From Rhynchopus sp. YZ270_cl-10 (lineage: Eukaryota), in contig OZ037844.1 of the NCBI GenBank assembly GCA_964035575.1, forward strand, positions 1,364,001 through 1,428,000: DNA of 64,000 bases. The letters run 5' to 3'. Within the stretch, counting starts at the first letter, position 1; every line of letters begins with the position of its first letter. A model generated the notes under the pieces. The model was not told the DNA's origin and made no database searches. It saw nothing but the letters and a program-made list of their open reading frames with translations. The position numbers and the translations under genes were made by a program. Shown one piece after another: positions 4,850-33,183 of the stretch.

Positions 4850-5216
4850 TGTTTATTTCGTTGCTTGTATTACTGTAAGCGATAGTGGAGGGTAGGGTGG
4901 GGCGAGGGTGTGTTGTGTGTCCGTAGCAAGGGATGATTTTGCAAAGTGTTTTCCAGCACTTCTCTCGAAGCAAAGATGCCCCTATTTATTTGTCGTTTTG
5001 TTTTGTTTAGATACGGCGCTGTGGCGTTGCAAGGCGTTTCGATACGTTGTAAAAAAAAAAAAGAATATGGATTTACCTAGCGAGAGGGGCACATGCTCAT
5101 GCCATGTCACTTTGTCACGTGTTGAGAGTAGCATCCTTCTTTGTCCCTCCTCCCCACCTGAAAACCCACGCATAAAAAGGAAAACCACAACACACATTAA
5201 CGAGAAGTTCAAAACC

Positions 5217-6968
5217 ATGTCGAAGCGACACGCAGACAGCACACCTGACGAGAAGGCACCAAAGAGAAGAAAGCTTTCAGACTCGGTCTTGGTGGAAGCT
5301 GCCAGGAACGGCGACACGACTGCCGTGCGGGTGGAACTTGACAATTTCAGCCCAGACACAGTCAGCAAAAGGGTTGCCTTCGATGCTGTGCACGAGGCAT
5401 GCAGAGGGAACCACGATGAATGCCTCGCACTGCTTCTTCCATATGTTGAGACAACGCAGATGGGCTTCGGGATGCTGCTGAGTGAGTGCGTCCACGCAGA
5501 CCACACTGCGTGCACGGAGGTCCTCTTGCAGCATTGGAAGTCAGTCTGCAGCAACGTTGCGTTTGTCCCTCACGGGCAGGAGGCAGACAACGAAAGTCAG
5601 ACACCTCGTCCCTGTCCAGCCATGTGGGCGGACCCTGCAGTGTGTCAGGTGCTCATTGATGCAGGGGCAGACATCGAGACAAAGGATGAGGATGGACTTT
5701 CACCTCTTCTCAGGGCGAGCATTTCAGGCAAGTCCGCAGTTGTGAAGATGTTGGTTGAAGCAGGTGCGGGAGTGTGTGTCACAGACAACAAAGGCGACAC
5801 ATGTCTTATCCTTGCTGTCCCAGATGCTTCGTCACGTTTTGGACACACCGAGACTGTGCGCTATCTTGTGGGCTTGAAGGATGTGGACGTGAATCACGCA
5901 GATGATGAAGGCTTCACTGCGTTGCACTGCGCAGTGCTAGAAGGATATCCAGATGTGGTGCAGGTGCTTATTGATGCAGGTGCAGACATCGAGGCGAAGG
6001 ACGAGAAGGGACGTTCACCTCTGCACGTGGCTTGCCTCTCCGGATCCCTCGCAGTTGTGAAGGTGTTGGTTGGAGAAGGTGCGGGAGTGTGTGTCTCAGA
6101 CGACGAAAGACCCACATGTCTTACGCTTGCGGCATGGAATGGGCACACCGAGATTGTGCGCTATCTTGTGGACTTGCCAGAGGGGGACGTGAATCACGCA
6201 TATGGCTTCGCAGCAACTGCGTTGCACTGCGCAGCACGTCAGAAGCATCCCGATGTGGTGAAGGTGCTCATTGATGCAGGGGCAGACATCGAGGCACAGG
6301 ACAACGACGGATATTCACCTCTATTCTTGCCAAGCATTTCAGGGGGAGTCGATACTGTGAAGGTGTTGCTGAGAGCAGGTGCAGACGTACGTGCCACAGA
6401 CACCACAGGTAACACATGTCTTATGTTTGCAGCACATCATGGCCACATCGAGACCGTGCGCACTCTTCTGTGCATGCCTGAGGTGGGTTTAGATAACCCA
6501 GGAGAACACGGCTCCACTGCGTTGCACGACGCAGCATGTCAGGGACATCCCGATGTGCTGCAGGCACTGCTTGATGCAGGGGCAGACACCGAGGCAAAGG
6601 ACGCGGAGGGGAGGTCGGTGCTACTCGTGGCAAGCAGCACACATGAAGTTAAATCTGTGAAGGTGTTGGTCGAAGCAGGTGCGGAAGTGCGTGCCACAGA
6701 CGACGAAGGAAACACGTGTCTTATCATTGCGGCATATTTTGGATACACCGAGATTGTGCGCTATCTTTTGTGCTTGTCGGATGTGCATGACAGAGACGCT
6801 GAAGGAGACACTGCGTTACACTTAGCTGCACATCAAAAGCTTCCGGATGTGGTGAAGCTTCTGTTGGAGCACGGTGCGGATAAGTCGTTGTGCAATGAGG
6901 CAGGAGAGACGGCACTTGATAATGCAGCAGCAGGTGGGTGTCGTGAGTGTTGTCGGCTCTTGAGCTGA
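5217..6968 (+). CDS. Ankyrin-repeat protein, paralog 1 (583 aa)
   Basis: Repeated G.T(A/C)LH.A...GH.(E/D).V..L...GAD ankyrin consensus; start set at MSKRH, the ATG shared by all five paralogs. Confidence 0.92.
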   Translation: MSKRHADSTPDEKAPKRRKLSDSVLVEAARNGDTTAVRVELDNFSPDTVSKRVAFDAVHEACRGNHDECLALLLPYVETTQMGFGMLLSECVHADHTACTEVLLQHWKSVCSNVAFVPHGQEADNESQTPRPCPAMWADPAVCQVLIDAGADIETKDEDGLSPLLRASISGKSAVVKMLVEAGAGVCVTDNKGDTCLILAVPDASSRFGHTETVRYLVGLKDVDVNHADDEGFTALHCAVLEGYPDVVQVLIDAGADIEAKDEKGRSPLHVACLSGSLAVVKVLVGEGAGVCVSDDERPTCLTLAAWNGHTEIVRYLVDLPEGDVNHAYGFAATALHCAARQKHPDVVKVLIDAGADIEAQDNDGYSPLFLPSISGGVDTVKVLLRAGADVRATDTTGNTCLMFAAHHGHIETVRTLLCMPEVGLDNPGEHGSTALHDAACQGHPDVLQALLDAGADTEAKDAEGRSVLLVASSTHEVKSVKVLVEAGAEVRATDDEGNTCLIIAAYFGYTEIVRYLLCLSDVHDRDAEGDTALHLAAHQKLPDVVKLLLEHGADKSLCNEAGETALDNAAAGGCRECCRLLS

Positions 6969-7263: not shown

Positions 7264-8295
7264 TTGTGGCTCTTGAGTTGAAACATTGTCCTCTTTGAAA
7301 TCACCCTCCTTTTATTTGTGGTTTTTGTTTATATTTTTTTGGTTGTGTTATTACGTGCTCGCCATTTCCCCCTCACGAGGTGTGACCCAGATCGCAAAAG
7401 CAAAGCTTTGCACTGTTGAGCACAAGCAAAGACACAAAGCTTGGATCTGGTGAGTGCAGGTGGCTCCGTGCCAGACCACAGAGTTCCGCACTGTTCATGA
7501 TGCCTCTCAAGCAAAGCACCCAAAGTATTTATTGGGAGAACCAGTGCCTGCGTCCGCCGACGAACGGTGAGGCGTTTGCACTTTCAACTTCTCTTTTTTG
7601 ATGGTCAATACAATGCACATCAGCCATAGAAAGAAAGAGGGAAAAAGCTGTTCATTTGTGTTACATCCAAATCACCTCATTTCCCATAACCTTCTTTCAC
7701 CTCCATCCTCACCACCACCACGTATGCACTCCTGAACACTCTGAAAGTACTTACTACTCGCTTCTGTCTGGGAACAGTGATTGCAACTGGGCCCTTATTG
7801 CGGAACAGAACTCCAAGCACCACAGATATTTTCAGAAACGCCAACATAGTCATTGCATCGTTGCGGCTGTGTCGTTTTGCATTGTCTCTGGCTTGTCGTC
7901 GCAACCTCCATTGTGATGTCTCCCGTGAGCCTCGTGTCCTTCGTCTTAGAGGTTGGCGCCTCGAAGGGTCTCACGATGAACACCTTCTTGCCGGCGGCGG
8001 CCCCCACCGCAACCGTATGCATCAACTGCAGCGAGGTCTAGACCAGAAGGAGCAGACCTTTGCACATCCTATAGGCGGCACCCGGCTGTGCACAACACCC
8101 GCAGCACCAATGTCAAAGTCCTTCGACTTCCCCAAGAAGGCACGTGAAATGCACATTATGTCATGTACGTTCGTGTCATTGATGTGCACTTTGTCACGTG
8201 CTGAGAGTAGCATCCTTCTTTGTCCCTCCTCCCCACCTCACAACCCATGCAAAAAAAGGAAAACCACAACACACATTAACGAGAAGTTCAAAACC

Positions 8296-10935
8296 ATGTC
8301 GAAGCGACACACAGACAGCACACCTGACGAGAAGGAACCAAAGAGAAGAAAGCTTTCAGACTCGGTCTTGGTGGAGGCTGCCAGGAACGGCGACACGACT
8401 GCCGTGCGGGTGGGACTTGAGAAGCTCAGCCCAGACACAGACAGCAAAACGGTTGCCTTCGATGCTGTGCACGAGGCATGCAGAGGGAACCACGATGAAT
8501 GCCTCGCACTGCTTCTTCCGTATGTTGAGACAACGCAGATGGGCTTTGGGATGCTGCTGAGTGAGTGCATCCACGCAGACCACACTGCGTGCACGGAGGT
8601 CCTCTTGCAGCATTGGAAGTCAGTCTGCAGCAACGTTGCGTTTGTCCCACACGGACAGGAGGCAGACATCCAAAGTAAGAAACCTCGTCCCTGTCCAGCC
8701 ATGTGGGCGGACCCTGCAGTGTTTCAGGTGCTCATTGATGCAGGGGCAGACATCGAGACAAAGGATGAGAAGGGATTTTTACCTATTCTGTTGACAAGCC
8801 TTTCAGGCAAGATTGCAGTTGTGAAGATGTTGGTTGAAGCAGGTGCGGGAGTGTGTGTCACAGACAACGAAAGACGGACATGTCTTACCCTTGCGGCATG
8901 TTGTGGACACACTGAGACCGTGCGCTATCTTGTGGGTTTGAAGGTTGTGGATGTGAATCACACTGATAGCTACGGCCGCACTGCTTTGCACTGGGCAATA
9001 CAGGAAGGATATCGCGATGTGATGCAGGTGCTCATTGATGCAGGTGCGGGAGTGTGTGTCACAGACAACGAAAGCTACACGTGTCTCACCCTTGCGTCTG
9101 TTTATGGACACACCGAGATTGTGCGCTATCTTGTGGGTTTGAAGGAGATGGATGTGCATCACGCAGATAACAACGGCTGCACTGCGTTGCACTGGGCAGT
9201 GCAGGAGGGACCTCCCGATGTGGTGCAGGTGCTCATTGATGCAGGGGCAGACATGGAAGCGAAGGATAATAGAGGACGCTCTGCTCTTCTCAGGGCTAGC
9301 ATTGCAGGCAAGATCGCAGCTGTGAAGATGTTGGTCGAAGCAGGTGCGGGAGTGCGTTTCACAGACACCAAAGGAGCCACATGTTTTACCCTTGCGGCAA
9401 ACTTTGGCCACACCGAGACTGTGCGCTATCTTGTGGGTTTGAAGGATGTGGACGTGAATCACTCACAGAACAATGGACGCACTGCGTTGCACCACGTAAT
9501 CCACGAAGGACATCGCGATGTGATGCAGGTGCTCATTGATGCAGGGGCAGACATCGAGGCTAAGGATAAGAAGGGATTTTCACCTCTGCTCAGGGCAAGC
9601 ATTTTAGGAAAGTTCGCAATTGTGAAGATGTTGGTCGAAGCAGGTGCGGACGTGCGTGTCACAAACAACAGAGGAGACACGTGTCTTATCCTTGCGGCAA
9701 TCTCTGGACATACCGAGACTGTGCGCTACCTTGCGGGCTTGAAGGATGTGGATGTGAATCACGCACTGAACAACGGCCACACTGCGTTGCACTGGGCAGT
9801 GCACGAAGGACCTCCCGATGTGGTGCAGGTGCTCATTGATGCAGGTGCAGACATGGAGGCGAAGGATGATAGAGGACGTTCTGCTCTTCTCAGGGCTAGC
9901 ATTTCAGGCAAGATCGCAGCTGTGAAGATGTTGGTCGAAGCAGGTGCGGGAGTGCGTTTCACAGACACCAAAGGAGCCACATGTTTTACCCTTGCTGCAT
10001 TCTTTGGCCACACCGAGACTGTGCGCTATCTTGTAGGTTTGAAGGATGTGGACGTGAGTCACTCACAAAACAATGGACTCACTGCGTTGCACCACGTAGC
10101 ACACGAAGGACATCGCGATGTGACGCAGGTGCTCATTGATGCCGGGGCAGACATCGAGGCAAAGGATGGGCTGGGATTTTCACCTCTGCTCAGGGCAAGC
10201 ATTTTAGGAAAGTTCGCAATTGTGAAGATGTTGGTCGAAGCAGGTGCGGACGTGCGTGTCACAGACAACGAAGGAAACACGTGTCTTATCCTTGCGGAAA
10301 ACTCTGGACACATCGAGACTGTGCGCTACCTTGCGGGCTTGAAGGATGTGGACGTGAATCACGCAGTGAACAACGGCTGCACTGCGGTTCACTACGCAAC
10401 CAGTGTCGATGTGCTGCGGGTACTCGCCACTGCTGGAGCAGTCATTACGGCAAGACCAAACAACCCGAGTAGTTCGGCTCTTGTCACTAGCGAGAAAGGG
10501 AATAATACAGCAAAGGTGAAGACGTGGATCGAAGCAGTTGCGGTCGCCACAGACAGCGAAGGTGACACATCCCCCCCTTTTACGTCAGGTTCAGGACAGG
10601 ACAGCACGTCGCCACACACCTGCGAAATGGGAAGAGCTGAGCGCGAGTCTGCTTCTGCATCGGCAGTGGGGGCAGGTGAGAGTACGGCACGACTGCGTGA
10701 GGGGGGAGAGGAGGATGAAGACAACGAAGATACCGAGGAAGAGGATGAAGCTGCAGACGAAGAGGACGACACCTGCGAGGGCTATGAGCTGGTCAATGTG
10801 GACCGCCGCGGTGAGGGTGAGAGCGACGCAAGTCCAGAAGGAAGTGGAGGGAGCAGTGGTGGTGGTGATGAAGACTCTGATGGCGACAGCTTCGTGAATA
10901 TCTCCTCGATCCAATCGGGGTTGGTAGTTATTTAA
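8296..10935 (+). CDS. Ankyrin-repeat protein, paralog 2 (879 aa) with acidic C-terminal tail
   Basis: Same constant N-terminus; 300-bp repeat units (GTGCTCATTGATGC at about 9229, 9529, 9829, 10129); unique Asp/Glu-rich tail. Confidence 0.92.
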   Translation: MSKRHTDSTPDEKEPKRRKLSDSVLVEAARNGDTTAVRVGLEKLSPDTDSKTVAFDAVHEACRGNHDECLALLLPYVETTQMGFGMLLSECIHADHTACTEVLLQHWKSVCSNVAFVPHGQEADIQSKKPRPCPAMWADPAVFQVLIDAGADIETKDEKGFLPILLTSLSGKIAVVKMLVEAGAGVCVTDNERRTCLTLAACCGHTETVRYLVGLKVVDVNHTDSYGRTALHWAIQEGYRDVMQVLIDAGAGVCVTDNESYTCLTLASVYGHTEIVRYLVGLKEMDVHHADNNGCTALHWAVQEGPPDVVQVLIDAGADMEAKDNRGRSALLRASIAGKIAAVKMLVEAGAGVRFTDTKGATCFTLAANFGHTETVRYLVGLKDVDVNHSQNNGRTALHHVIHEGHRDVMQVLIDAGADIEAKDKKGFSPLLRASILGKFAIVKMLVEAGADVRVTNNRGDTCLILAAISGHTETVRYLAGLKDVDVNHALNNGHTALHWAVHEGPPDVVQVLIDAGADMEAKDDRGRSALLRASISGKIAAVKMLVEAGAGVRFTDTKGATCFTLAAFFGHTETVRYLVGLKDVDVSHSQNNGLTALHHVAHEGHRDVTQVLIDAGADIEAKDGLGFSPLLRASILGKFAIVKMLVEAGADVRVTDNEGNTCLILAENSGHIETVRYLAGLKDVDVNHAVNNGCTAVHYATSVDVLRVLATAGAVITARPNNPSSSALVTSEKGNNTAKVKTWIEAVAVATDSEGDTSPPFTSGSGQDSTSPHTCEMGRAERESASASAVGAGESTARLREGGEEDEDNEDTEEEDEAADEEDDTCEGYELVNVDRRGEGESDASPEGSGGSSGGGDEDSDGDSFVNISSIQSGLVVI

Positions 10936-11063
10936 AAAATAGACTCCAAGGGGCTGGCGGGGTTTTGGTAAACTTAGGTCAAAAAACAGATTTACCCACG
11001 AAACCCACCCAAAACCCAATTCCAAGTGGGGGTTTTTTTTTACCTCGACATTATTTCATCTAT

Positions 11064-11163
11064 CTTCTACTCGGACTTTTTGCTCGATTTTTCCTCCTGT
11101 GACCTCGGAAACGTCATTCTGAGTTCAAAGGAGCAAAAATCGAGCAAAAAGTCCGAGTGGAAG
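11064..11163. repeat. 100-bp near-perfect palindrome (foldback/MITE-like)
   Basis: CTTCTACTCGGACTTTTTGCTCGATTTTT ... AAAAATCGAGCAAAAAGTCCGAGTGGAAG. Confidence 0.7.
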
Positions 11164-12076
11164 TTATCTCGTGTGCAAAATATTCAAAAGATGCCACCTT
11201 TTAGGAGGGGGTTTTTATGGACTGCGCCATGTGTAAAACAAAAGCCAGCTTCTCTTTTTTTCTCTCTCACCCCCCTTTTTTTTTCTCTCACACCCCCCTT
11301 TTTTTTTCTCTCTCACTGTCCATAAGTTGCTAGCTTAAAATCCCCCTTTTAAAAGTGATGCTAATATTCCTTAGTTTATAAGATGGACCTAAGCACGAGA
11401 GGCGTAGGTTCATCTTATTCACCTTGTTTTATTCCTTCAAAATAGTGCTGACCTTCCAGATGACCCAAAATTAGTATCTTTTTTTTTTCCCCCTATAGGA
11501 GTGCATGTATGCATGCTTTGTTTTTGTATCGTTTTCATTGTGTAGGTTTTGGTTGTAGTACAAAACAAATCAGGAACCTCGCCCTTTTTTGAAAGTGGCT
11601 AAGCACGAGAGTACCTAGGTTCACCTTGCCACCTGATTTTTCCTGAAATTTGATGGAGTTTGGTGGTATTTACCCCAAGCTCCATAACTCCCCCAAAATT
11701 TTCCTTTACCAATAAAATGTCCCTGGCTGACATGCGTTCGGAACAATGTGTGCGTTTCACCACAACCTCTCCCATAGGTTTTATCGTGTGATGAGTGTTA
11801 AGTTTCTATTTCTTTTTTCTTTGCGTTTCTAAACGATTTTTCTTTCCTTCTTGCCGTACCCCCAATTGCCACCAATCTCAATACTCTCCCCACCACCATA
11901 CCACTCTGTTATAAAGGGAGGTATGAGGTTTACAGTTTGCAGTTTTGTTTGCAGTCTTGACGAGACGTGTCAGAGTTTTACACTGTCCGTAAGTTGTTCC
12001 TTGCCCTTTTTTGATTGAGTGCCTACATCCATAGAGTCGTAGACATTTTTTTTTTTTTTTTTTGTTGGTGTTCATC

Positions 12077-18489: not shown

Positions 18490-18810
18490 AACGAATCTGC
18501 TTTGTCAGGATTGAGAGTTTGCCAGAAATTTGCTTATGTAACACACCCTCAAGTGCTCGATGCTTACGGAACTGTCGTTATGCATTGTCAACCTCGCTGT
18601 GCATGTGGCAGCTACCTCACACCTTTATTGTTTGTGACAGCAACCCACAGTAAGAAGTCACGTGAAATGCACATCATATCATGTAGATTCGTGTCATTGA
18701 TGTGCACTTTGTCACGTGCTGAGAGTAGCATCCTTCTTTGTCTTCCCCACCTCACAACCCATGCATAAAAAAGGAAAACTACAACACACATTAACGAGAA
18801 GTTCAAAACC

Positions 18811-21741
18811 ATGTCGAAGCGACACACAGACAGCACACCTGACGAGAAGGCACCAAAAATAAAGAATATTTCAGACTCGGTCTTGGTGGAGGCTGCCAGG
18901 AACGGCGACACGACTGCCGTGCGGGTGGGACTTGAGAAGCTCATCCCAGACACAGACAGCAAAAGGGTTGCCTTCGATGCTGTGCACGAGGCATGCAGAG
19001 GGAACCACGATGAATGCCTCGCACTGCTTCTTCCGTATGTTGAGACAACGCAGATGGGCTTCGGGATGCTGCTGAGTGAGTGCATCCACGCAGACCACAC
19101 TGCGTGCACGGAGGTCCTCTTGCAGCATTGGAAGTCAGTCTGCAGCAACGTTGCGTTTGTCCCACACGGGCACAAGGTAGGCATCGACGATAAGACACCT
19201 CGTCCCTGTCCAGCCATGTGGGCGGACCCTGCAGTGTGTCAGGTGCTCATTGATGCAGGGGCAGACATCGAGGTGAAAGATGAGGATGGACGTTCACCTC
19301 TGCTCAGGGCAAGCATTTCAGGCAAGCCCGCAGTTGTGAAGATGTTGGTCGAAGCAGGTGCGGGAGTGTGTGCGACTGACAACTATGGAACGACGTGTCT
19401 TATCCTTGCTTCACGTTTTGGACACACCGAGATTGTGCGCCAGCTTGTGGGTTTGAAGGATGTGGAAGTAAATCACTCAGACAACGAAGGCTGCACTGCG
19501 CTGCACTGCGCAATACTGAATGGACATCCCGATGTGGTGCAGGTGCTCATTGATGCAGGGGCAGACATCGAGACAAAGGATGAGGATGGTTGTTCACCTC
19601 TGCTCTTGGCAAGCACTTCAGAGCATTTCGCTATTGTGAAGATGTTGGTGGAAGCAGGTGCGGGAGTGTGTGCCACAGACAACAACGGACTCACATGTCT
19701 TATCTTTGCGGCATATTGTGGACACACCGATACTGTGCGCTATCTTGTGGGCTTGAAGGAGGTGGACGTGCATCGTGAACAGAACAAGGGCTGCACTGCG
19801 TTGCACTTCGCAGTGCACGAAGGACATTGCGATGTGGTGCAGGTGCTCATTGATGCAGGTGCAGACAGAGAAGCGAAGGACGAGGATGGACGTTCACCTC
19901 TGCTCAGGGCGAGCATTTCGGGTAAGTTCGCACTTGTGAAGATGTTAGTCGAAGCAGGTGCACACGTGTGTGTCACAGACAACGAAGGTAACACATGTCT
20001 TATGCTTGCGTCACATTTTGGACACACCGAGACTGTGCGCTATCTTGTTGGCTTGAAGGTGGGTGTGAATCATGAAAAGAGCAACGGCTGCACTGCGTTG
20101 CACTTCGCAGTGCAGGAAGGACATCACGATGTGGTGGAGGTGCTCATTGATGCAGGGGCAGACATGGAGGCGTATAACAAAGATGGTCGTTCACCTCTGC
20201 TTTTGGCAAGTCTTTCGGGCACGTCCGCTATTGTGAAGATGTTGGTCGAAGGAGGTGCGGGAGTGTGTACCACAGACAACAAAGGAAACACGTGTCTTAT
20301 CTTTGCGGCATATGGTGGACACACCGAGACTGTGCGCTATCTTGTTGGTTTGAAGGATGTGGATGTGAATCATGCAGACGGCGACGGCAGTACTGCGTTG
20401 CACCACGCAGTGCTACATAAACACCGTGAAGTAGTGCAGGTGCTCATCGATGCTGGAGCAGATATCGAGAGAACGGATAAAAAGGGGCGTTCGCCTCTGC
20501 TCTTGGCGAGCTGGTTAGGAGAACTTGCTGTTGTGAAGATGTTGGTCAAAGCAGGTGCGGACGTGCGCATCACAGCTCAAGGTATAACATGTCTGATCAC
20601 TGTGTCGGGTGCTGGACACACCGAGACTGTGCGCTATTTCGTGGGCTTGAAGGACGTGGATCTGGATCAGGCAGACGGCGGCGGTTTCACTGCGTTGCAC
20701 CACGCAGTGCTACATAAACACCGTGAAGTAGTGCAGGTGCTCATCGATGCTGGAGCAGATATCGAGAGAACGGATAAAAAGGGGCGTTCGCCTCTGCTCT
20801 TGGCGAGCTTGTCAGGAGAACTTGCTGTTGTGAAGAGTCTTGTCAAAGCTGGTAGAACGGGTGATACAGCCGGAGGGTTCACGTGTCTTATTCTTGCGTC
20901 AGGCGCAGGACACACCGAGACTGTGCGCTATCTTGTGGGCTTGAAAGAGGTGGACGTGAATCACCGAGACACCAATGGCTTCACTGCGTTGGACCGTGCA
21001 GTGCTGCAAAATCATCCCGATGTGGTGAAGGTACTATGCGATGCAGGAGCAGACCTGGAAGCAAAGGATGACTTTGGTAGTACGCCTCTGCTCTTGGCCA
21101 GCCGTTCAGGATATCTCGGTGTTGTGAAGACGTTGGTCGAAGCAGGTGCGGGAGTATGTGTCACAGATGAGCAAGGATTTACATGTCTTATACTTGCGAC
21201 GGGTGCTGGACATACTGCAACTGTGCGGTATCTCGTGGGTTTGAAGGAGGTGGACGTGAATCACGTAGGACACGGGAAAACTGCGTTGCATTTGGCTACA
21301 CAGCAAAAACATGTGGGGGTAGTGCAGGTGCTTATTGATGCAGGAGCAGACATCGACACAAAGAACGACTTGGGACGTACACCTCTGCTCGCGGCTAGCG
21401 GTACTGGGAAACTCGGCATGGTGAAAATGTTGGTCGAAGCAGGTGCGGGAGTGTGTGTCACAGACAACAATGGAAACACGTGTCTTCTACTTGCTGCGAA
21501 TGGTGGACACACCGAGACTGCGCGCTATCTTGTGGGTTTGAAGGAGGTGGACCTGAATAACGCAGACTGTAACGGCAGTACTGCGTTGCACTTCGCAGTG
21601 AAGCAACATCATGCAGATGTGGTGCAGCTTCTTCTCGAGCACGGTGCGGACAAGTCTTTGTGCAATGGGGGAGGGGAGACAGCACTGGACTGTGCGTTTA
21701 GCCTTGGCTGTGCTGAGTGCTGTCTCCTGTTGACTTGTTAA
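18811..21741 (+). CDS. Ankyrin-repeat protein, paralog 3 (976 aa)
   Basis: Constant N-terminus plus about 8 triple-ankyrin units; ends LGCAECCLLLTC. Confidence 0.93.
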   Translation: MSKRHTDSTPDEKAPKIKNISDSVLVEAARNGDTTAVRVGLEKLIPDTDSKRVAFDAVHEACRGNHDECLALLLPYVETTQMGFGMLLSECIHADHTACTEVLLQHWKSVCSNVAFVPHGHKVGIDDKTPRPCPAMWADPAVCQVLIDAGADIEVKDEDGRSPLLRASISGKPAVVKMLVEAGAGVCATDNYGTTCLILASRFGHTEIVRQLVGLKDVEVNHSDNEGCTALHCAILNGHPDVVQVLIDAGADIETKDEDGCSPLLLASTSEHFAIVKMLVEAGAGVCATDNNGLTCLIFAAYCGHTDTVRYLVGLKEVDVHREQNKGCTALHFAVHEGHCDVVQVLIDAGADREAKDEDGRSPLLRASISGKFALVKMLVEAGAHVCVTDNEGNTCLMLASHFGHTETVRYLVGLKVGVNHEKSNGCTALHFAVQEGHHDVVEVLIDAGADMEAYNKDGRSPLLLASLSGTSAIVKMLVEGGAGVCTTDNKGNTCLIFAAYGGHTETVRYLVGLKDVDVNHADGDGSTALHHAVLHKHREVVQVLIDAGADIERTDKKGRSPLLLASWLGELAVVKMLVKAGADVRITAQGITCLITVSGAGHTETVRYFVGLKDVDLDQADGGGFTALHHAVLHKHREVVQVLIDAGADIERTDKKGRSPLLLASLSGELAVVKSLVKAGRTGDTAGGFTCLILASGAGHTETVRYLVGLKEVDVNHRDTNGFTALDRAVLQNHPDVVKVLCDAGADLEAKDDFGSTPLLLASRSGYLGVVKTLVEAGAGVCVTDEQGFTCLILATGAGHTATVRYLVGLKEVDVNHVGHGKTALHLATQQKHVGVVQVLIDAGADIDTKNDLGRTPLLAASGTGKLGMVKMLVEAGAGVCVTDNNGNTCLLLAANGGHTETARYLVGLKEVDLNNADCNGSTALHFAVKQHHADVVQLLLEHGADKSLCNGGGETALDCAFSLGCAECCLLLTC

Positions 21742-24038
21742 GCTGAGCAATGTTTCTTCCACTTGCAGACAGTTGCTGCTGTCGAGCGGGCGGCTCTCCG
21801 CTAAAATGCCGGTGTTTTTGGACGATGCATATTTTCCGGCTAAAAAACCTACCACAAATTATAAAGTGTGTCAAGGACCTGTCAGGGGCCTGTCAATATA
21901 GGCCCCCTCCGGAGCACCACCCTCCCTTTTTTTCTTGTTTCCGAAGGAGCGTTAGCCAAAAGAGACAGAAGGTAGTAAGTCGAGATACTCAGCACAGTTT
22001 AAAGCAATATTGCTTGTCCTTATCTTTTGCAGTTAACACCAAACTAAAATGCTTTTTTCGGCAAAACAACAAAAGCCAAAGCAATACAGAGAGAACCAAC
22101 TATTTTTCGTTTCACTACTTTTTCTATGACTAGTAAGGAGGTACCCTAACTGTTCGGTCCAATTCGGTGTAATTCGGTCCATTTCGTTTTTTTTTTTTTT
22201 TCGCAAAGGGAAATTTCCCCTTGTACCAGAAAAACCGAAAAAAACGAAATGAAAACCGAAAAAAACCGAAATGTTAGGGTACCTTTTTTGGTCGATTTCG
22301 TTTTTTTTCCAAAGGGGGGAGGGACCCTTTGGTCGCCGAAATTCCCCAGCCAAAATTGGTCGCAAAATCGGCCGATTTTTCAAAAATCTCAAAAAAAACA
22401 TAGGGTGAAAACGATCGTTTTTTTTTTTTTTTTTTTTTTACGAATCTGGGAAAAAGTGATCGGTCTTTTTTTTTTTTTTTTTTTTCACGATCGTGAAGAA
22501 AAAAAAACGATCGTTTTTTTTTTTTTTTTTTCTTCACGATCGTGAAAAAAAAGCACCTTTTTCTTCACGATCGTGAAGGAAAAAAAAAACGATCGTTTTT
22601 TTTTTCCCATATTATGTCGTTGATCGCTGGCCCACACCAGGGAGGGAGCCCCCACAGGTGCCCACAACCCCCCTGAAATCGGCCGAGAGTAACTTTTAGC
22701 GGTGTTTTGACGTAAAATGTCACCTTTTTTGCCATTTTTGGGGTGTACTTTTCTGGAACAAAATTCGCAAAACCCGAAATACGAATCGTAAAAAATCGCG
22801 ACATTCTATGACATGCGTATACCATGAAGCAGCACGTCACGGCATGGCATGTAACATGCACATGTAATATCGCCAAAAACCTAGTCGTAGTAACATCATC
22901 ACTGTGCAAACCCCTGTCCATCCAATACAATTCACACTCTTTGTGGGTGGTCTTGCTGCCTTTTTGCCACAGTAATTTTTGGCCCGGCAGGCATGCTCTT
23001 GAAGCATGGCAATTTAGTGTGTATGGGGCAGGGTGTTGTTTTGTTCTGAATTCCCTTTGTTACAATATCTATCCAATCGCGAGTGGTTGTATGTGTATCG
23101 TGAGACACTCTTTTTAACCCTTTACGGACCAAGAGGACATTTATGCCCATTGTGGCGGGGGATGCGGCGTTCAACACCAGGCCAAGTTGGCCAAAAGCCC
23201 AACTTTTGTACTGTCCAACCTCTGTACAATTACGGTATATTTCGTTGGCTGGTGGTCTGAAGAGTGATCTGACCATATTCTCCAGGTATAACAAATGCCC
23301 AAATAATGCATTGGCGAAGGAATTTTGCACTTTTGACCATCACACATTACTTGTATTTTTACCGGTTTTTTAATGAGTACAACCTATGTCAGAGCACGCT
23401 GTCCCACAGATTTTAGAATTTGGGGGGGTCACGCAACAGGGATTACGCAGCTCCCCATACTTATCGCTAAATATGCCGTTTTCCCCGAAAAATTTTAGAA
23501 TTCCACGCCCAATTTCTTTCTTTTTGGCAAAAAAAAATTTTTCGCGCTTCGCGCGAAAAAGGTCCTCAGAAGCTCAATTCCGGAAACAAATACGGGGGGA
23601 GCGACGTTTTCCAACTCCTCCGCCATCAGCAGGAACACCTCCGTTTTCTCTTGAATCTGGGACGCTTGTTGCTGAGAAACAGGGCAACAGCGCGTTCAAG
23701 CATATTCCCCATCTTTTCAGTGTTAAACTCGTGGCGAAGCCACGGTACGCAACATTTCTAAAAATTGCGCTTAAAATTGCCTACTATGTCGCGGGAAGGG
23801 TGGGTTGAAAGCTCGCGCCGCAGTGCATCTTCCTTTTCCGGTAAAATAGAAGAAAATTGTCTTCTAAAAATAGAATTCTGTGGGGGGTAGGTGAGAGGTG
23901 GGCGGAGCCCCCACTCCTCCACCCCAGCCTCAATCCAAAACCCTGTATTTTTTTTTTTTTGGTATTTTTTGAGCTGAGATTTTCAAAAAATACCAAAAAT
24001 ACCAGGGTCAACCGCTGTGATGCTCATTGTTTAGAACA

Positions 24039-24720: not shown

Positions 24721-25890
24721 CTGAGGACCCCAAGGTTGATGATGATGCTGAGCATCACGACTCTGACATCAGTGAAGGCTCTTGGGACTAAACGCATACA
24801 GTCTTGTCCGTACCCATTTCTCCCACACAAGTCACCACCCCCTTGTGACTTGCCTGTAACAGTGGAAACGTTTCCCTCCCAGCCGCAAACCCGTTCAGTG
24901 TATCGTGAGCCACTGCAGTGACCCACTCACGCTCGACCCTGTCCCTCCTTGTAAACAGTTCGCCTTCTCCTACGTTGTGCTAAGGAAAACCAAAAAACAT
25001 GCTCAAAAATGATGGGCACGGGGGTCAGACTCCACTTCTGACCACTTAAAATTAGGTCATACACGTGTTATACCCCAAACTGACCAAGAAATTTTCCCAG
25101 TGTTCGATGGTGATCGAATTAAATCGGTGGTAAAAAGTGAAAAATGGGGCATGCCAGGCCCACGTCAATCAGCCTAAAAATGTTGCAACTTTAAACGCGC
25201 GTCTCTCCCGTACACCAATATACACTTTTTAACACATACAGTACAGCAAGGGAAAACCAAGGGATTTTACCCTGTGTTCTCCTTGTTACTGGCTGCACTA
25301 ACCTAATCATCAAAACTGCTCGATTTTGGCTTTATCTAAAAGATCGACATCAATTCTTACGAAATATAATTTATTTTACGATTTTGAGTAGAATTCTGTT
25401 TGCAGGGCGAAGTCACGAGGCAGGGGGTGATTTTGGGGGTGAGCGCCAAAAAAAGTCCTTTTCCTAGGGTTGACCCACCTCCCTCCAGCATCCAACGATA
25501 TGACATTTTCACGAAAGTTGTCGATTCTTGCCTTATTATTGTCACACAGAAAAAAAATGTTTTTACGAAAATGAGTAGAACCCCATTACCCCTACCAACG
25601 TGTGGCATTCGTGCGCCACTATAGTGGCACTTGCCATGGGTAAAAACGGTTTTCTGGTTTTAGTGCCTCGCTGGCGACATCCGTTGGGGGGGATTCTGGT
25701 GTGAGAATGTTCTCGATTTTTGCTTTATTTGAAAGATTCGCCACAAAATCGTTTCAAGGAAAAGAGTCGGTCAAAAATTCCAAGTAGAACCCAGAAACTC
25801 TCCCTTGCCACCCATTTCACGCCCATGCCCCTTGTACTACTAGGGGAAAAAAAAAAAACGATCGTGAAAAAAAAAAACGATCGTGAAAAA

Positions 25891-27549
25891 ATAACTAATT
25901 ATTAGCGTGAAATAAAGTGCACTTTTTTTCACGCCCACGTAATTTTGGCTCACGAGTGAGAGTTTATTGCCCGAGCCGCAGGCGAGGGCAATAATAGAGC
26001 ACGAGTGAGACAAAATACGTGGAAGTGAAAAAACGCACTTTATTTCAAACTAATACGTAGTTTTGTTTTACAAGTGAAAATGATATTTTTGCTGGGATCC
26101 TTCACAAACGAGACGTAAAATAGAGTGATTTTATGAACAAAATGTGGGTACCTGTAAGTGAGAGTGTGAATGAGAGTAGGGGAACATGTGAACATCAATC
26201 AAAAGCAGGGAAGGGGTTACTTTTTTTGATATATGCCTCCTATGACTGGTACTAATTACAAGATGTCACCACTCATCTCGCCTGTAGGGGGGGGGCAGGT
26301 GTATAGAGCATCACAGAAGGGGGGTTTTTTTTTTTGCACTCATGATCATGGTTTGTTCTGTTGCACATTGATGTTAATCTTGACTTCTTGTGGCGTCTGA
26401 GTTGGGGGACTGTTGTTCTGTGTCAACAGCTGTGACATCGCAACTTGACCGGCCTGTGTGACTTCGGTGTACCTTTGTGGCATTGCCTGACTGACCCACC
26501 CATAGTGGCGTTGCATCTGTACAATAGATGCTCCTGCCTCAGCGGCTTGAGTCGCAGAAGACCTGCGGAAGCTGTGCCCAGTGTACGAACCGTCCAGCGC
26601 AAGCACCCTCGCGACTTCTGCAGGTATGCCGTACATTTTGTTGATGCCAAGAGGTTGCACACGAAAGGTCCCAGTAGTAGTTCTGTCAGCTGTCGTCTTA
26701 GTTCCAGTGATGAAGAAGCGACCCTCCTGTGAAACTGGTGAGCGCCGGTTCAGGTACTCCTCCACCACACAAAAGTAGATGCTGTCTCTTGGTACCACAA
26801 ACCTCCCACGCTCCATGTCGGCCTTTTTCACCTTAGCACAGTGCTGGTACGTGAAGAGGTATCCCACTGGTGATTCCTGATAATTTGTCATCTCAAGCAT
26901 CAGTGCTTCTGTGCATCTCATTCCCGACAGAAAACACACCGCGACGTAAGCCTTGCGGACACACCAGTAGCAGTCGCTCAACTCGCTCATCTTGAGAAAC
27001 ATCTCCACTTCTCCCTTCGAAAACGTCTTGCTCTTCTTCGTCGATTCGTCACTTCCCCAGGTCTTCAGCAACAGCCCGATGCGGTGGTACTCCTTTAGTG
27101 AAAAGTCGAACTCCGTCTTGAACATAAAGTTGAGCTTAGAGTAGCACGACCATAATGAGCTGGCTTTGTAGCTGCGTTCTTCGCGCAGGTGTGTCAAGTA
27201 AGAGACCACATGTTCTTCTCTTGGCTGCTTCCGCCCCGTGATTTTATTGTGTTGTAAAAACTTATTCCACTCCGTTTTGTATGCAGTGCTTGACTTCAAC
27301 CCTGCCAGAAGCTCGGTCTCATACAGATCCTCCATAGCCTCCTTCTTCTTGGTCCTTGGCATGATTTGTAGGGTGGAGTGTGTGGTTTTGTGACTGACAG
27401 AAAACAGTGAAACTTTTTTTCACGCCAGTGAAACTTTTTTTCACGCCTCCAGCGAAATTACTAAGAGCAAGCGTGAAAAAAAGCTCACTTTATTTCACGC
27501 CCCGTTTGTGAAGGATCCCAGCAAAAAGTCATTTTCACATGTGATATAA
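25891..27549 (-). mobile_element. Crypton-like tyrosine-recombinase DNA transposon (CryptonI-like), apparently intact
   Basis: Single YR ORF, no reverse transcriptase; ATAA direct repeat at 25891-25894 and 27546-27549; interrupts the subterminal repeat array of the host element; subterminal inverted repeats and a long hairpin. Confidence 0.8.
26346..27362 (-). CDS. Tyrosine recombinase (phage-integrase family), 338 aa
   Basis: Catalytic signature R (LSGMR), K (AKVKK), HxxR (YTGHSFRRSSAT), W (RHYGW), Y (PQRY); YKASSLWSCYS, KKSKTFSK and PLGIN resemble CryptonI-type recombinases as recalled, not searched. Confidence 0.92.
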   Translation of the reverse strand: MPRTKKKEAMEDLYETELLAGLKSSTAYKTEWNKFLQHNKITGRKQPREEHVVSYLTHLREERSYKASSLWSCYSKLNFMFKTEFDFSLKEYHRIGLLLKTWGSDESTKKSKTFSKGEVEMFLKMSELSDCYWCVRKAYVAVCFLSGMRCTEALMLEMTNYQESPVGYLFTYQHCAKVKKADMERGRFVVPRDSIYFCVVEEYLNRRSPVSQEGRFFITGTKTTADRTTTGTFRVQPLGINKMYGIPAEVARVLALDGSYTGHSFRRSSATQAAEAGASIVQMQRHYGWVSQAMPQRYTEVTQAGQVAMSQLLTQNNSPPTQTPQEVKININVQQNKP

Positions 27550-28849
27550 AAAAAAAAAATGTCAAGATCTTGAAAAAAAGTTCAAGATCTTGAAAAAAAC
27601 CGTCACGATCGTTCTCACACTATGAAAAAAAAATTTTTTTTTTTTTTTCACAAGTGTTTTTGAGGCCTGCTCACTACACCCTAGGCACCCTTCTGAGACC
27701 AAAAAGTCAAAAAAAGCATGAATTGGGCTGTTTTGAGCATCTAGAGTTTATTCCCCAGCCATTTTCTGTACCACCAGTGCATTTTGTATGGGCCAGCGCC
27801 TTGTCGAAAAATCGAAAAATCTCAAAAAAAAAAAAAATTTTTTTTCGGGAAAATTTCGACCACTGAGGTGGGTCTTTGGGCACCAAAAAATGCAAAAAAA
27901 ATGCAAAAATCGGGTGTTTTGACCATCTGTGGTTACACAAAACACACTTCTGTGTACAAGCCTACACCAATACAGTGGTAATACAAGGCGATTTTTGACC
28001 AAAAAAAAAATTTTTTTTTCGCCCAAAATCGGGCGTGGTACGTCATAAAATGGCCCAAAAAATCCAAGGAAAACCTTCGATTGGGCAAATTATGAAAAAA
28101 TTTCAAGTCAAATTTTCAACCAAAATACGGTCATTTTGTTCACACAGTGATTCTACGTCATGCTAGCTTCCTGTGCAGAACTCCAGCAATTCACTAATGC
28201 CGGCATCTATCTTTCCATTATCGCCATTGCACTTCGTTCACGCCATTGCACTTCGGTCATTTTGTGCATACCCTGTGACTGTGGTGGCTAGAGAACACGC
28301 ACATGCAGACCCGTTCCTTGCAATTTCCAGTGTTGTGTTTATCAATGCATGCATCCAGAGGACCTCTGGTTTACGAAATCGTAGGCACTCCTGTGCAAAA
28401 ATGAAGTCGGTTTTTGACCCAAAATCGGGGTGGGTGGGCCATAATTTGCTCCAAATTTGGCCGAAAATTGGGATTTTTCTGAAAATTTTCATTGTGCCCA
28501 GCAAAAATCCTTGATTTTTTGAAGAATTTTCCAAAAAATATGCTATACCCCCTATGACTGGACCCAACTCCCCTCACCCTTTTTTTCCCCTAAAAAAGCC
28601 CCCAAAATTCCTACCATTTTTACCATTTTTGACCAATTTAGGGTACCTCCTAACGCCTCTCTTTTTTTCCAATGTCAACAGAGTTCACTGTTTGCTTCTT
28701 CGCCAACCTCTGTACGTCTAATCTAGATCACAAGGTAATTCTTTCATTTGTGGTGAGACTTCCCTCCCAGGCTTCGCGCTAACTTTTGGAAAAAAATCTG
28801 AAAAATCGTGTTTCGGGACCAAAAAAACGCACCTCAAATAGTTGTGCGT

Positions 28850-29230: not shown

Positions 29231-30234
29231 AAAGTGCGTAAATTTCGTGTGGCTTTTTCCCGCCAAGAGGTCGTTTTGTTGCATTTCCGAACCAATCCCG
29301 GATTGGGATGTACGGAAAAATGGACAAAAATGCAGCGACTTAAAATTTGACAAAACATGAGCCCATATTCGTAAACAAGGGTTATTTTCAGGTCTGAAAA
29401 CCCAACGTACTGAAGATCCCGCTAAAAGGCGTTGAATAAATAGTTATTTTTTTTTGTTCGTGTCTGTTTCTGTGTTCGCCACGTTTTGCCACCAAGATGT
29501 GCCAAGCATAGGTGACCCGTTTTCCCCTTTCCCCCCTCACGAGGTGTGACCCAGATCGCAAAGCAAAACTTTGCACTGTTGAGCACAAGCAAAGACACAA
29601 AGCTTGGATCTGGTGAGTGCAGGTGGCTCCGTGCCAGACCACAGAGTTCCGCACTGTTCATGATGCCTCTCAAGCAAAGCACCCAAAGTATTTATTGGGA
29701 GAACCAGTGCCTGCGTCCGCCGACGAACGGTGAGGCGTTTGCACTTTCAACTTCTCTTTATTGATGGTCAATACAATGCACATCAGCCATAGGAAGAAAG
29801 AGGGGAAAAGCTGTTCATTTGTGTTACTAGGCTAGTTGACGTCACGGACATTCGGGTTTGGGAGGGTATGGGACGGTATGGGAGTGGTATGGGAGGATTT
29901 TTGGAGGTTTGGGAGTGGTTTGGGGGTCGTGCATGTACTTAGGGTAGCTCGACTTTTTTTTCGTTTCCCGCTCGCTGACCCTGAAAAAAAATTCCGCGCG
30001 CGCGCAAAAAAAAAAATTTTTCCTGAAAAAAAGTTGACAAAAAAGTTGTGGGAACAGGGTGATCCTGTGGGTTTTTTATATAAAATCGCCTCAGGGACCC
30101 CAAAAACGGGTGACCCAAAACACAGTTTTTTGTCACGTGAAGACAGCAGCAGCCTTCTTTGTCCCTCCTCCCCACCTCACAACCCACGCATAAAAAGGAA
30201 AACCACAACACACATCAACGAGAAGTTCAAAACC

Positions 30235-31980
30235 ATGTCGAAGCGACACACAGACAGCACACCTGACGAGAAGGCACCAAAGAGAAGAAAGCTTTCAGAC
30301 TCGGTCTTGGTGGAGGCTGCCAGGAACGGCGACACGACTGCCGTGCGGGTGGGACTTGAGAAGCTCAGCCCGGACACAGACAGCAAAACGGTTGCCTTCG
30401 ATGCTGTGCACGAGGCATGCAGAGGGAACCACGATGAATGCCTCGCACTGCTTCTTCCGTATGTTGAGACAACGCAGATGGGCTTCGGGATGCTGCTGAG
30501 TGAGTGCATCCACGCAGACCACACTGCGTGCACGGAGGTCCTCTTGCAGCATTGGAAGTCAGTCTGCAGCAACGTTGCGTTTGTCCCACACGGGAGCAAC
30601 ACGAAAGGAAAGAAACCTCGTCCCTGTCCAGCCATGTGGGAGGACCCTGCAGTGTGTCAGGTGCTCATTGATGCAGGGGCAGACATCGAGACAAAGGACG
30701 AGAGGGGATGTTCACCTCTGCTCAGGGCAAGCATTTCAGGCAAGTCCGCCATTGTGAAGATGTTGGTGGAAGCAGGTGCGGACGTGTGTGTTACAGACAG
30801 CAAAGGACTCACGTGTCTTATGCTTGCTCTCATTGCTTCACGTTTTGGACACACCGAGACTGTGCGCTATCTTGTGGGCTTGAAGGAGGTGGACGTGAAT
30901 CATGAACACATCAACGGCTACACTGCGTTGCACTTCGAAGTGCAGAACGGACATTGCCATGTGGTGCAGGTGCTCATTGATGCAGGGGCAGACATCGAGG
31001 CAAAGGACGAGGAGGGACGTTCTGCTGTGTTCAGGGCGAGCATTTCAGGCAAGTGCGCTGTTGTGAAGATGTTGGTCGAAGCAGGTGCGGACGTGCGTGT
31101 CACAGACAACAAGGGAAACACGTGTCTTCACTTTGCAGCACGTTTTGGACACACCGAGATTGTGCGCTATCTTGTGGACTTGCCAGAGGTGGATGTGAAT
31201 CACGCAGATGACGTCACATCAACTGCGTTGCACTGCGCAGCACGTCAGAAGCATCCCGATGTGGTGAAGGTGCTGATTGATGCAGGGGCAGACATCGAGG
31301 CACAGGACGACGACGGATATTCACCTCTATTCTTGCCGAGCATTTCAGGGGGAGTCGATACTGTGAAGGTGTTGCTGAGAGCAGGCGCAGACGTACGTGT
31401 CACAGACGACACAGGTAACACATGTCTTATGTTTGCAGCACATCATGGCCACATCGAGACCGTGCGCACTCTTCTGTGCATGCCTGAGGTGGGTTTAGAT
31501 AACCCAGGAGAACACGGCTCCACTGCGTTGCACGACGCAGCATGTCAGGGACATCCCGATGTGCTGCAGGCACTGCTTGATGCAGGGGCAGACATCGAGG
31601 CAAAGGACGCGGAGGGGAGGTCGGCGCTACTCGTGGCGAGCAGCGTAGGTGAAGTTAAATCTGCGAAGGTGTTGGTCGAAGCAGGTGCAGAAGTGTGTGC
31701 CACAGACGACGAAGGAAACACGTGTCTTATCATTGCGGCAGTGTTTGGACAGATCGATATTGTGCGCTATCTTTTGAGCTTGCCAGATGTGGATGTGCAT
31801 GACAGAGACGCTGAAGGAGACACTGCGTTACACTTAGCTGCACATCACAAGCTTCCGGATATGGTGAAGCTTCTGTTGGAGCACGGTGCGGATAAGTCGT
31901 TGTGCAATGAGGCAGGGGAGACGGCACTTGATAATGCAGCAGCAGGTGGGTGTCGTGAGTGTTGTCGGCTCTTGAGCTGA
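30235..31980 (+). CDS. Ankyrin-repeat protein, paralog 4 (581 aa)
   Basis: Constant N-terminus; 3' half and downstream region nearly identical to paralog 1. Confidence 0.92.
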   Translation: MSKRHTDSTPDEKAPKRRKLSDSVLVEAARNGDTTAVRVGLEKLSPDTDSKTVAFDAVHEACRGNHDECLALLLPYVETTQMGFGMLLSECIHADHTACTEVLLQHWKSVCSNVAFVPHGSNTKGKKPRPCPAMWEDPAVCQVLIDAGADIETKDERGCSPLLRASISGKSAIVKMLVEAGADVCVTDSKGLTCLMLALIASRFGHTETVRYLVGLKEVDVNHEHINGYTALHFEVQNGHCHVVQVLIDAGADIEAKDEEGRSAVFRASISGKCAVVKMLVEAGADVRVTDNKGNTCLHFAARFGHTEIVRYLVDLPEVDVNHADDVTSTALHCAARQKHPDVVKVLIDAGADIEAQDDDGYSPLFLPSISGGVDTVKVLLRAGADVRVTDDTGNTCLMFAAHHGHIETVRTLLCMPEVGLDNPGEHGSTALHDAACQGHPDVLQALLDAGADIEAKDAEGRSALLVASSVGEVKSAKVLVEAGAEVCATDDEGNTCLIIAAVFGQIDIVRYLLSLPDVDVHDRDAEGDTALHLAAHHKLPDMVKLLLEHGADKSLCNEAGETALDNAAAGGCRECCRLLS

Positions 31981-32272: not shown

Positions 32273-33183
32273 TTGTCTGTGGCTCTTGAGCAAAGACACA
32301 AAGCTTGGATCTGGTGAATGCAGGTGGCTCCGTGCCAGACCACAGAGTTCCGCACTGTTCATGATGCCTCTCAAGCAAAGCACCCAAAGTATTTATTGGG
32401 AGAACCAGTGCCTGCGTCCGCCGACGAACGGTGAGGCGTTTGCACTTTCAACTTCTCTTTTTTGATGGTCAATACAATGCACATCAGCCATAGGAAGAAA
32501 GAGGGGAAAAGCTGTTCATTTGTGTTACATCCAAATCACCTCATTTCCCATAACCTTCTTTCACCTCCATCCTCACCACTCTCACCACCACCATCACCAC
32601 GTATGCACTCGCGCCAATGTATGGGTCGCGGCACTTCTTTCGCACCCACACACATTTGTTGTGCAGAGGTGTTCTCAACCCTCGTGTATGGCCAGCCTCT
32701 CCAGAATCCTCTCCTTCGCAATCCTCGTCTACGCCCTTCTCTTTGGCAGGTGTAATGAGTTCCTGCGTCGCTGTCGTCTTTCTCTGGTACATAGTACTTA
32801 CTACTCGCTTCTGTCTGGGAACAGTGATTGCAACTGGGCCCTTATTGCGGAACAGAACTCCAAGCACCACAGATATTTTCACAAACCCCAACATAGTCAT
32901 TGTATCGTTGTGGCTGTGTCGTTTTGCATTGTCAACCTCGCTGTGCATGTGGCAGCTACCTCACACCTTTATTGTTTGTGACAGCAACCCACTTTAATAA
33001 GGCACGTGAAATGCACATCATATCATGTACGTTCAGCATTACATCATGTAGATTCGTGTCATTGATGTGCACTTTGGTACACGTGCTGATAGCAGCAGCC
33101 TTCTTTGTCCCTCGTCCCCACACACCTCACAACCCCCGCATAAAAGGAAAACCACAACACACATTAACGAGAAGTTCAAAACC

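Follow-up and report, generated by a model that had tools for sequence, protein, structure and literature searches.

Cryptons are generally modelled as transposons that are excised as duplex circles, and the only active ones observed were excised cleanly yet increased in copy number (PMC9977147). For the CryptonI group no terminal repeats were found, and the circular intermediate proposed there involves no folding (Kojima and Jurka 2011, PMC3212892). DIRS-1, which carries a tyrosine recombinase and an internal segment complementary to both termini, is a eukaryotic precedent for a single-stranded route with such an enzyme, via reverse transcription, and its single-stranded intermediate has been shown (Malicki et al. 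2020, PMC7192593). In integrons, replicative recombination of folded attC sites by a single exchange has been demonstrated (PMC3458562), and the active attC strand shows a purine skew and GAA loops (PMC5027507). The integrase IntI reads extrahelical bases with its I2 domain, whereas in CTX phage the unmodified XerCD recombinase, devoid of I2, acts on a stem that mimics duplex DNA (PMC4792948). Here we describe a Crypton-type element with a long hairpin at one end, found in a 64,000-nucleotide stretch of Rhynchopus sp. YZ270_cl-10 DNA (contig OZ037844.1, positions 1,364,001 to 1,428,000, assembly GCA_964035575.1), referred to below as the window.

The hairpin forms the left end of a Crypton-type transposon that is present in multiple copies. 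Since its one-strand design recurs in distant relatives, transposition of these elements as folded single-stranded DNA seems likely. We consider it very probable that the strand-specific folded DNA is functional. With less assurance, we favor the view that the hairpin constitutes half of a folded single-stranded recombination site, which would be cut by the element's own tyrosine recombinase.

The element and its terminal hairpin

The main features are as follows (plus and minus refer to the strands of the window):

25888 to 27551, minus strand: Crypton-type element (recombinase-only DNA transposon), about 1.66 kb
26346 to 27362, minus strand: predicted tyrosine recombinase, 338 amino acids (R149, K177, H263, R266, W289, Y298), with a modelled Cre-like two-domain fold
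25888 to 26067, plus strand: terminal hairpin, 68 pairs and 19 mismatches, 13 of them G.A on the plus strand
25977 to 25981, plus strand: c-GCA-g triloop at the apex
25973-25974 with 25984-25985, plus strand: apical tandem GA/GA in C-GA-G context, three pairs beneath the loop
25954-25955 with 26003-26004, plus strand: second tandem GA/GA, adjoining a 5x5 AGAGT/TAGAG loop with four G.A oppositions
27547: right end in a first reading, with TAT (27545-27547) inside the element and AAAA as a terminal direct repeat or overlap
27544: right end in a second reading, with TATAAAA as a strict target
25841 to 25885, plus strand: left flank, a portion of the host CGATCG-array repeat that hosts the insertion, outside the element
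27552 to 27622, plus strand: right flank, the remainder of the same host repeat (X1 and X2 contigs)

The palindrome at 25901-26054, to which the initial annotation had drawn attention, is real. When its 154 nucleotides were folded as DNA, the energies were -46.8 kcal/mol for the plus and -45.5 kcal/mol for the minus strand (z = -11.4 and -10.8, respectively), and an equal or better fold was obtained in none of 200 shuffles; pairing reaches out to 25886-26069. The c-GCA-g apex and both tandem GA/GA loops are present on the plus strand, while the mRNA-sense strand bears a TGC loop and T.C mismatches, as had been described. The arms had been said to be broken by regular mismatches of 1-2 nt, which is only partly the case, as there is also the 5x5 loop, together with a 2-nt and a 1-nt bulge. 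Folding both strands with DNA parameters, as had been proposed, gave a strong hairpin but an energy gap between the strands of only about 1 kcal/mol. Sheared tandems may be underrated by nearest-neighbour tables.

The strand difference rests on the mismatch spectrum, not on nearest-neighbour energy, and the G.A bias is broader than had been noticed. An arm-against-arm alignment that scores all mismatches alike gave 19 mismatches on the plus strand: 13 G.A, 2 T.T, 2 C.T, 2 A.C and no G.T, with purines at 28 of the 38 mismatched bases. Loops of the d(GNA) type closed by C:G are described as stable in DNA (PMC3201870). Long palindromes are frequent in the window (16 were found), and the others have mixed or predominantly transition-type mismatches. 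The pooled share of G.A and C.T is 15/19 mismatches in the hairpin versus 40/140 in 13 other palindromes, two tandem-repeat rows being left out (p = 3e-5, in a test with a denominator of 141). Among the other long palindromic repeats are those at 11061-11166, 42826-43002, 54455-54593, 60224-60347 and 62326-62445, with mostly transition-type mismatches; the ones starting at 54455 and 62326 belong to one family.

Contigs of other sequencing runs (X1, X2 and so on) were used to delimit the element; nine runs of five studies contain at least half of the sampled words, and one of them may be the source of the window. Three different left flanks (window, X1, X2) diverge at 25886 (X1) and 25888 (X2). 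This places the start of the element near 25888, at the hairpin base, and 'terminal' was thus the correct word. On the right, six different flanks (window, two each in X1 and X2, one in X9) diverge after 27551 (X2), 27552 and 27553 (X1), 27553 (X2) and 27557 (X9). The hairpin and the recombinase gene occur together on single contigs with differing flanks. No substitution was seen in the hairpin in contigs of X1, X2, X4, X8, X9 and X10, of which X10 does not cover it and X9 does so partly.

Each junction has at least four A, and AAAA is present in 9/9 junctions seen. The right end admits two readings. For 27544 speak X1 and X2 contigs that connect the CGATC array straight to 27541 onward, resembling an empty paralogous site; moreover, the junction 27544/25888, alone of the seven tried, is colinear with the internal copy described below and gapless near the crossover (score 62.5, versus 62.0 for the runner-up). 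For 27547 speak the TAT found in 6/6 right junctions and the window paralogues of the X1 left flank, which continue into plain A tracts. Wider boundaries (25841-27622, with a subterminal hairpin) were considered and rejected, as the flank comparison assigns those ends to the host repeat. The latter belongs to a family of CGATCG / CAAGATCTTG arrays with A and T tracts between them (22399-22612, 25841-25885, 27552-27622); the element is inserted within one array copy, and a further flank was found at 25842 in X2.

A protein identical to the window recombinase (P0003) is encoded on 37 ENA contigs, possibly drawn from more than one assembly, and its cluster has six further variants; most later searches used P0002, which differs from P0003 by one residue. 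There is no other open reading frame (ORF) of at least 120 amino acids in the element, and a promoter/terminator scan gave hits at chance level only. The recombinase matches PF00589 above the cut-off and looks intact, with the R-H-R-Y tetrad (R149, H263, R266, Y298) plus K177 and W289. Its structure model has a mean predicted local distance difference test value of 89.4. Sequence profiles match Cre (E = 1e-12) better than IntI4 (8e-5), Foldseek template modelling (TM) scores against Cre (PDB 3crx, 5u91) are 0.70-0.72, and a fold comparison (VIA) gave Z 22.3 over 299 residues for Cre, at 15% identity, versus 16.5 for IntI (2a3v). The score against the IntI family TIGR02249 (31.5 bits) is well under the cut-off of 265. 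By sequence and model, therefore, the enzyme appears Cre-like, not IntI-like, which makes CTX phage the closer analogue.

Hairpins beside distantly related recombinases

Since the hairpin does not vary among the run contigs, the covariation evidence comes from a design shared by distant loci, not from aligned columns; the relatives' hairpins do not align base by base. A HMMER search returned 1732 proteins at E <=0.001, with a best identity of 40%. An 11-sequence alignment query led to at least 16 metagenome loci (23-41% identity), and the counts below refer to the loci listed. A flanking hairpin, defined as the best local inverted repeat outside the gene (within 1100 bases, score at least 60), was picked in 12/16 of them. 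The strand to be tested was set by position and not by content, i.e. as the strand with its 5' end on the hairpin side. On this end-first strand, G.A minus C.T amounted to +3, +3, +7, +10, +9, +2, +5 and +9 at eight loci, -1 at three and 0 at one (strand-flip p = 14/2048 for the sum across the rule-picked hairpins).

Tandem mismatches and loops were surveyed in 12 hairpins, i.e. 11 picked by eye (L004 was left out) and that of the window. All 16 isolated tandems are 5'-GA/5'-GA, preceded by a pyrimidine and followed by a purine on the outer arm; neither AG-type tandems nor GA tandems on the other strand occurred among them. Y-GA-R is the context for sheared G.A pairs in DNA. The GA steps retain compensating flanks of differing sequence. 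Seven of the 12 loops are c-GNA-g, one is c-GGTA-g and four are of other kinds, and the strict apex motif occurs in 4/16 listed loci against a shuffle mean of 0.025. The initial annotation had named mismatch identities that vary among homologs as evidence against itself, and the identities proved to be retained in design; a design common to unrelated sequences supports its proposal that the hairpin is selected to fold as DNA on one strand. AATAGT-like starts were also noted in several relatives' hairpins.

The strand in question had been taken to be the template strand, and this part of the claim fails. Relative to the recombinase gene, the G.A strand is the antisense one in the window, L012 and L014 and the sense one in L003, L005, L007, L008 and L010, so 'template strand' is not the rule; the mixed orientation also argues against an RNA role.

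Other collections yielded little. The word-index protein search returned the element's own cluster only, single-protein locus scans found nothing in viral or bacterial collections, and the alignment query found nothing in viral contigs. Two weak bacterial loci, too few to serve as a control, have no G.A-biased hairpin (L017 with 3 G.A and 3 C.T, L018 with none). In a quick, unfinished tree built without reference sequences, the hairpin label was not clustered. Locus L011 contains an exact 55-bp direct repeat around its recombinase element (1-55 and 1541-1595), for which either a tandem copy or an overlap in the assembly could account; the 199-nt hairpin of L011 has a c-GCA-g loop and 11 G.T pairs on one strand.

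The internal copy of the joined ends and the proposed use of the folded strand

Four further features, all given on the plus strand, concern the whole element:

25981 to 26128: internal complementary region, consisting of the inner hairpin arm and the next 60 bases; a reverse copy in which the right end is joined to the left end
26061 to 26069: T-rich spacer TTTTGTTTT, facing both element ends in the fold; predicted crossover region
27485 to 27551: far end, pairing with 26061-26128 in 58/68 columns
27407 to 27500: repeats of the TTT(T/A)TTTCACGC motif upstream of the start codon; candidate duplex binding sites

Read as the reverse complement, the far end (27485-27551) corresponds to the 68 bases at 26061-26128, which overlap and extend the inner arm. 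None of 300 shuffles matched as well as the approximately 60 bases that follow the inner arm. As the inner arm complements the near end and the adjoining 60 bases complement the far end, the stretch 25981-26128 as a whole represents the joined ends in reverse copy. This complementarity next to the inner arm is absent from the initial annotation. The element ends are not inverted copies of each other; the 68-bp inverted repeat ties the right end to a subterminal segment. The hairpin has motifs in common with the far end, and a 30-bp palindrome (27471-27500) among the TTT(T/A)TTTCACGC repeats is 93% like 25905-25934.

When the whole element was folded, the left end was paired out to 25893 (25893-26062, p 0.52) and the right end out to 27542 (27542-26070, p 0.82). 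The two ends meet at the T-rich spacer, whose bases 26063-26069 are loosely paired, and both strands fold in this way. The far end is drawn into the same fold, of which the hairpin makes up one half, and so the hairpin is probably not the recombination site by itself. Three of the 10 testable relatives have a far-end match next to the inner arm (0/300 shuffles each in L003 and L010, 1/300 in L012), L007 being too short for the test. Control probes placed on the outer side and further in flagged two matches in relatives, one in L013 and the other being the direct repeat of L011.

We suggest the following route. The plus strand, exposed by replication or cruciform extrusion, would adopt a rod-like fold. 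In it, both element ends would adjoin each other on a T-rich spacer of 7-9 nt, flanked by a duplex arm on either side. This geometry would correspond to a tyrosine-recombinase core site, which usually consists of two arms around a 6-8 bp spacer (PMC3212892). The recombinase would exchange one pair of strands at the spacer and release a single-stranded circle; the other strand would be kept at the donor as a template, so that copy number could rise. Insertion of the folded circle into an A-rich duplex target would then take one exchange only, to be resolved by replication, in the manner of integron cassettes and CTX phage. Thanks to sheared G.A pairs and the GNA loop, one strand could mimic duplex DNA, and the palindrome in the genome would nonetheless remain imperfect. 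On balance, we lean towards the recombinase itself acting on the folded strand. Such a route would account for Cryptons that excise and yet multiply, though those belong to a different Crypton group. More tentatively still, and with somewhat less than an even degree of belief, we propose that widespread eukaryotic recombinase-only transposons, from protists to insects, may move by a peel-and-copy process: an internal mirror of the joined ends would build the site, and a Cre-like enzyme would excise a single-stranded circle and insert it by one strand exchange.

Several observations weigh against this proposal. Whether DNA or RNA parameters are used, the hairpin strands differ by no more than 1.0-1.4 kcal/mol, and folding of the complete element favors the minus strand (-272.7 versus -261.9 for the plus strand). 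The far-end stem lacks the G.A bias, although as an internal control within the same element it also provides a contrast that speaks for the hairpin bias: depending on gap placement, 0 or 1 of its 9 mismatches are G.A versus 13/19 in the hairpin (Fisher p 0.0008 or 0.013). Seven further instances of GA/GA combined with a GNA apex lie elsewhere in the window, within short repeats near which no recombinase gene was seen, so the design marks a folded DNA strand and not recombinase binding. Among the relatives, no hairpin scoring at least 60 was found in L002, L006, L015 and L016 (the first two are short-flanked, the others have a long flank on at least one side). Some hairpins depart from the pattern: L011 has a G.T bias, L009 is perfectly palindromic, and the loop of L014 is TCT. 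A match to the far end was absent from L001, L005, L008, L009, L013 and L014 and is weak in L011 (17/300 shuffles), and the relatives' ends are predicted and not mapped. Neither circle-junction contigs nor inverted isomers appeared among the contigs of six runs, although contigs drop rare forms. Finally, the fold resembles that of Cre, a duplex recombinase.

Mini-hairpins of the types GCGAGC-GNA-GCGAGC and GCGCGCGAAGCGCGCG lie in short repeats at 17621, 18286, 18328, 49986, 50770, 57260 and 57525, and also at 57300-57580. Another repeat family, in which a GNA mini-hairpin is followed by ACGGTAC, is present at 13161, 16285, 16709, 23736, 29051, 50331, 50449, 53870 and 53967; its stem varies (GCGCC-GCA-GGCGC versus GTGGC-GAA-GCCAC) and its loop class is constant.

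The best-surviving alternative, which we nevertheless regard as unlikely, is that the strand folds for end-joining or second-strand priming, like the internal complementary region of DIRS-1, and that the recombinase integrates an ordinary double-stranded circle. The layout equals that of the DIRS-1 region, which is described as complementing both termini and as indispensable once cDNA has been made, in a proposed model that ends in a duplex circle (PMC7192593). A Cre-like enzyme with no IntI family match would suit such a circle, and every strand-bias result is equally compatible with it. However, the element, with its one ORF of at least 120 amino acids, encodes no reverse transcriptase, HUH nuclease or polymerase that would make or close a single strand. 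Moreover, the spacer at which the ends meet has the size of that in a recombinase site, and the G.A strand is independent of the direction of transcription.

Slightly less probable is an element that remains duplex DNA throughout. In such a case, the internal copy would be a second inverted recombinase site or binding array, for which the FRT repeats of the 2-micron plasmid are a parallel, and G.A mismatches would accumulate by escaping repair in occasional cruciforms. The repeated TTT(T/A)TTTCACGC motifs and the 30-bp palindrome at both ends do resemble duplex binding sites, mismatches in the far-end inverted repeat are mostly transition-type, and the direction of the gene relative to the hairpin varies among relatives, as inversion would produce. 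On the other hand, a cruciform repair filter would neither set polarity to the element end (p = 14/2048) nor select c-GNA-g loops on the end-first strand only, and the GA steps keep compensating flanks of different sequence. In addition, no strand-change joints were present in the six runs' contigs (subject to the same loss of rare forms), and single contigs span both repeats in X1 and X4.

An RNA structure in the 3' untranslated region or in an antisense transcript is highly improbable. The hairpin does lie about 280 bases past the stop codon, and its fold as RNA is strong (-82.5 and -81.1 kcal/mol). Against this, it is the mRNA strand that has the T.C mismatches and the TGC loop, and the G.A strand has the sense orientation in five relatives but the antisense one in two others and in the window. 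Rfam gave no match at the hairpin (one unrelated sub-threshold match fell outside the element), and the stability of GNA triloops is described for DNA (PMC3201870). The weakest explanation, an unrelated palindromic miniature element or neutral inverted duplication that lies beside the recombinase gene by chance, could draw on the 16 long palindromes of the window and on its enrichment in c-GNA-g mini-hairpins (24 versus 5.4 in shuffled sequence, stems of at least 4), but it is largely refuted by the flank contigs, on which hairpin and gene travel together, and by the relatives' strand test, with the motifs common to hairpin and far end and the recurrence of the same design in different sequence beside proteins of 23-41% identity also opposing it.

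If the folded-strand site is real, it would offer a concrete answer to the question of Crypton transposition, with specific bases to mutate. In that case, the element would stand beside integron and CTX-phage recombination as their self-contained counterpart in eukaryotes, using a transposition route not described for DNA transposons with a tyrosine recombinase. The window copy is a good test case, with its 1.66 kb, one intron-free gene, all catalytic residues and mapped ends, and near-identical copies at many sites add to its value. The end rule (a hairpin at one end and an adjoining mirror of the other end) could help to bound Crypton families listed without terminal repeats, and a structure-guided single-strand integrase active in eukaryotic cells would be an interesting tool.

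Elsewhere in the window there are five related long intron-free ORFs (4896-6968, 7690-10935, 18769-21741, 29836-31980, 33052-35208) with 300-bp repeat units and a common 5' part that is 93-98% alike; the one scanned encodes an ankyrin-repeat protein. Further long ORFs had no Pfam match at E 0.01, i.e. 1110-3527 (805 amino acids), 3448-4464 (338), 36456-37748 (430) and 39854-40537 (227). A perfect tandem array of about 600 bases, with a unit of 7-bp period (14-bp spacing), occupies 57857-58500 and is adjoined by a 10-bp repeat array at 57601-57760.

Comparison with known systems

The element shares the core features of the Crypton superfamily, i.e. a tyrosine recombinase as the sole mobilising enzyme and interspersed, multi-copy occurrence with defined ends. 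Judged by these features and by its protein, placed without a reference tree, it is a Crypton-type element nearest to CryptonI. Cryptons were originally described without terminal inverted or long direct repeats, the exceptions being two listed CryptonF families. Terminal direct repeats of 4-6 bp are reported for CryptonF and CryptonS and none was found for CryptonA and CryptonI; the junctions seen here show AAAA, under two readings of the end. Like CryptonI, the element has a single tyrosine-recombinase ORF without an additional C-terminal domain: members of the alignment match PF00589 (38/40) and PF13495 (6/40) only, with no DUF3504 and no GCR1_C. Its size of about 1.66 kb is close to the 1657 bp of CryptonI-1_RPro, and 5 of the 10 distant matches looked up are named insect proteins. 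The hosts differ, as CryptonI is found in insects and the window element in a likely euglenozoan protist. A dCMP deaminase gene in the window (38132-38860) is 64% identical to that of Diplonema papillatum, the highest named match, and 66-75% identical to EukProt protist sequences; the ORFs are intron-free. What distinguishes the element from CryptonI is the terminal hairpin together with the internal copy of the joined ends. A literature search found no description of hairpin or internal-mirror Crypton ends, with Repbase reports and most subscription papers outside its scope, so a prior account is possible.

With DIRS elements the window element has in common an internal region complementary to both termini. 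It lacks gag, reverse transcriptase, RNase H and long inverted long terminal repeats, and its internal copy adjoins one end, hence the triloop hairpin, which is a difference from DIRS-1.

The likeness to integron attC sites comprises an imperfect palindrome, purine-rich unpaired bases on one strand, a GNA-type apex and a tyrosine recombinase. The reported mean energy difference between attC strands is 2.1 kcal/mol, and the approximately 1 kcal/mol of the window hairpin is of the same order, which is not proof. In the strict sense, however, the label 'attC-like' given by the initial annotation does not apply: the RYYYAAC...GTTRRRY core of the attC R box is missing, only an AAC/GTT pairing (25893-25895 with 26060-26062) being present at the hairpin base without the flanking consensus, and even this triplet is absent from the relatives' hairpins. 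There is no cassette array, and the enzyme stands outside the IntI family. Furthermore, an integron has a self-contained hairpin per cassette, whereas here one site would be built from both ends and the internal copy.

The attP site of CTX phage, a folded strand that mimics duplex DNA and is used by an unspecialised recombinase without I2, is a better fit than IntI. CTX phage borrows the host XerCD and a fixed dif site and obtains single strands from its own rolling-circle replication. The window element differs in encoding its own recombinase and in inserting at many A-rich sites. Cre acts on symmetric duplex loxP sites, and the fold that it has in common with the window recombinase does not reveal the substrate of the latter. 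The element is neither an integron nor a DIRS element, but it would work like parts of both.

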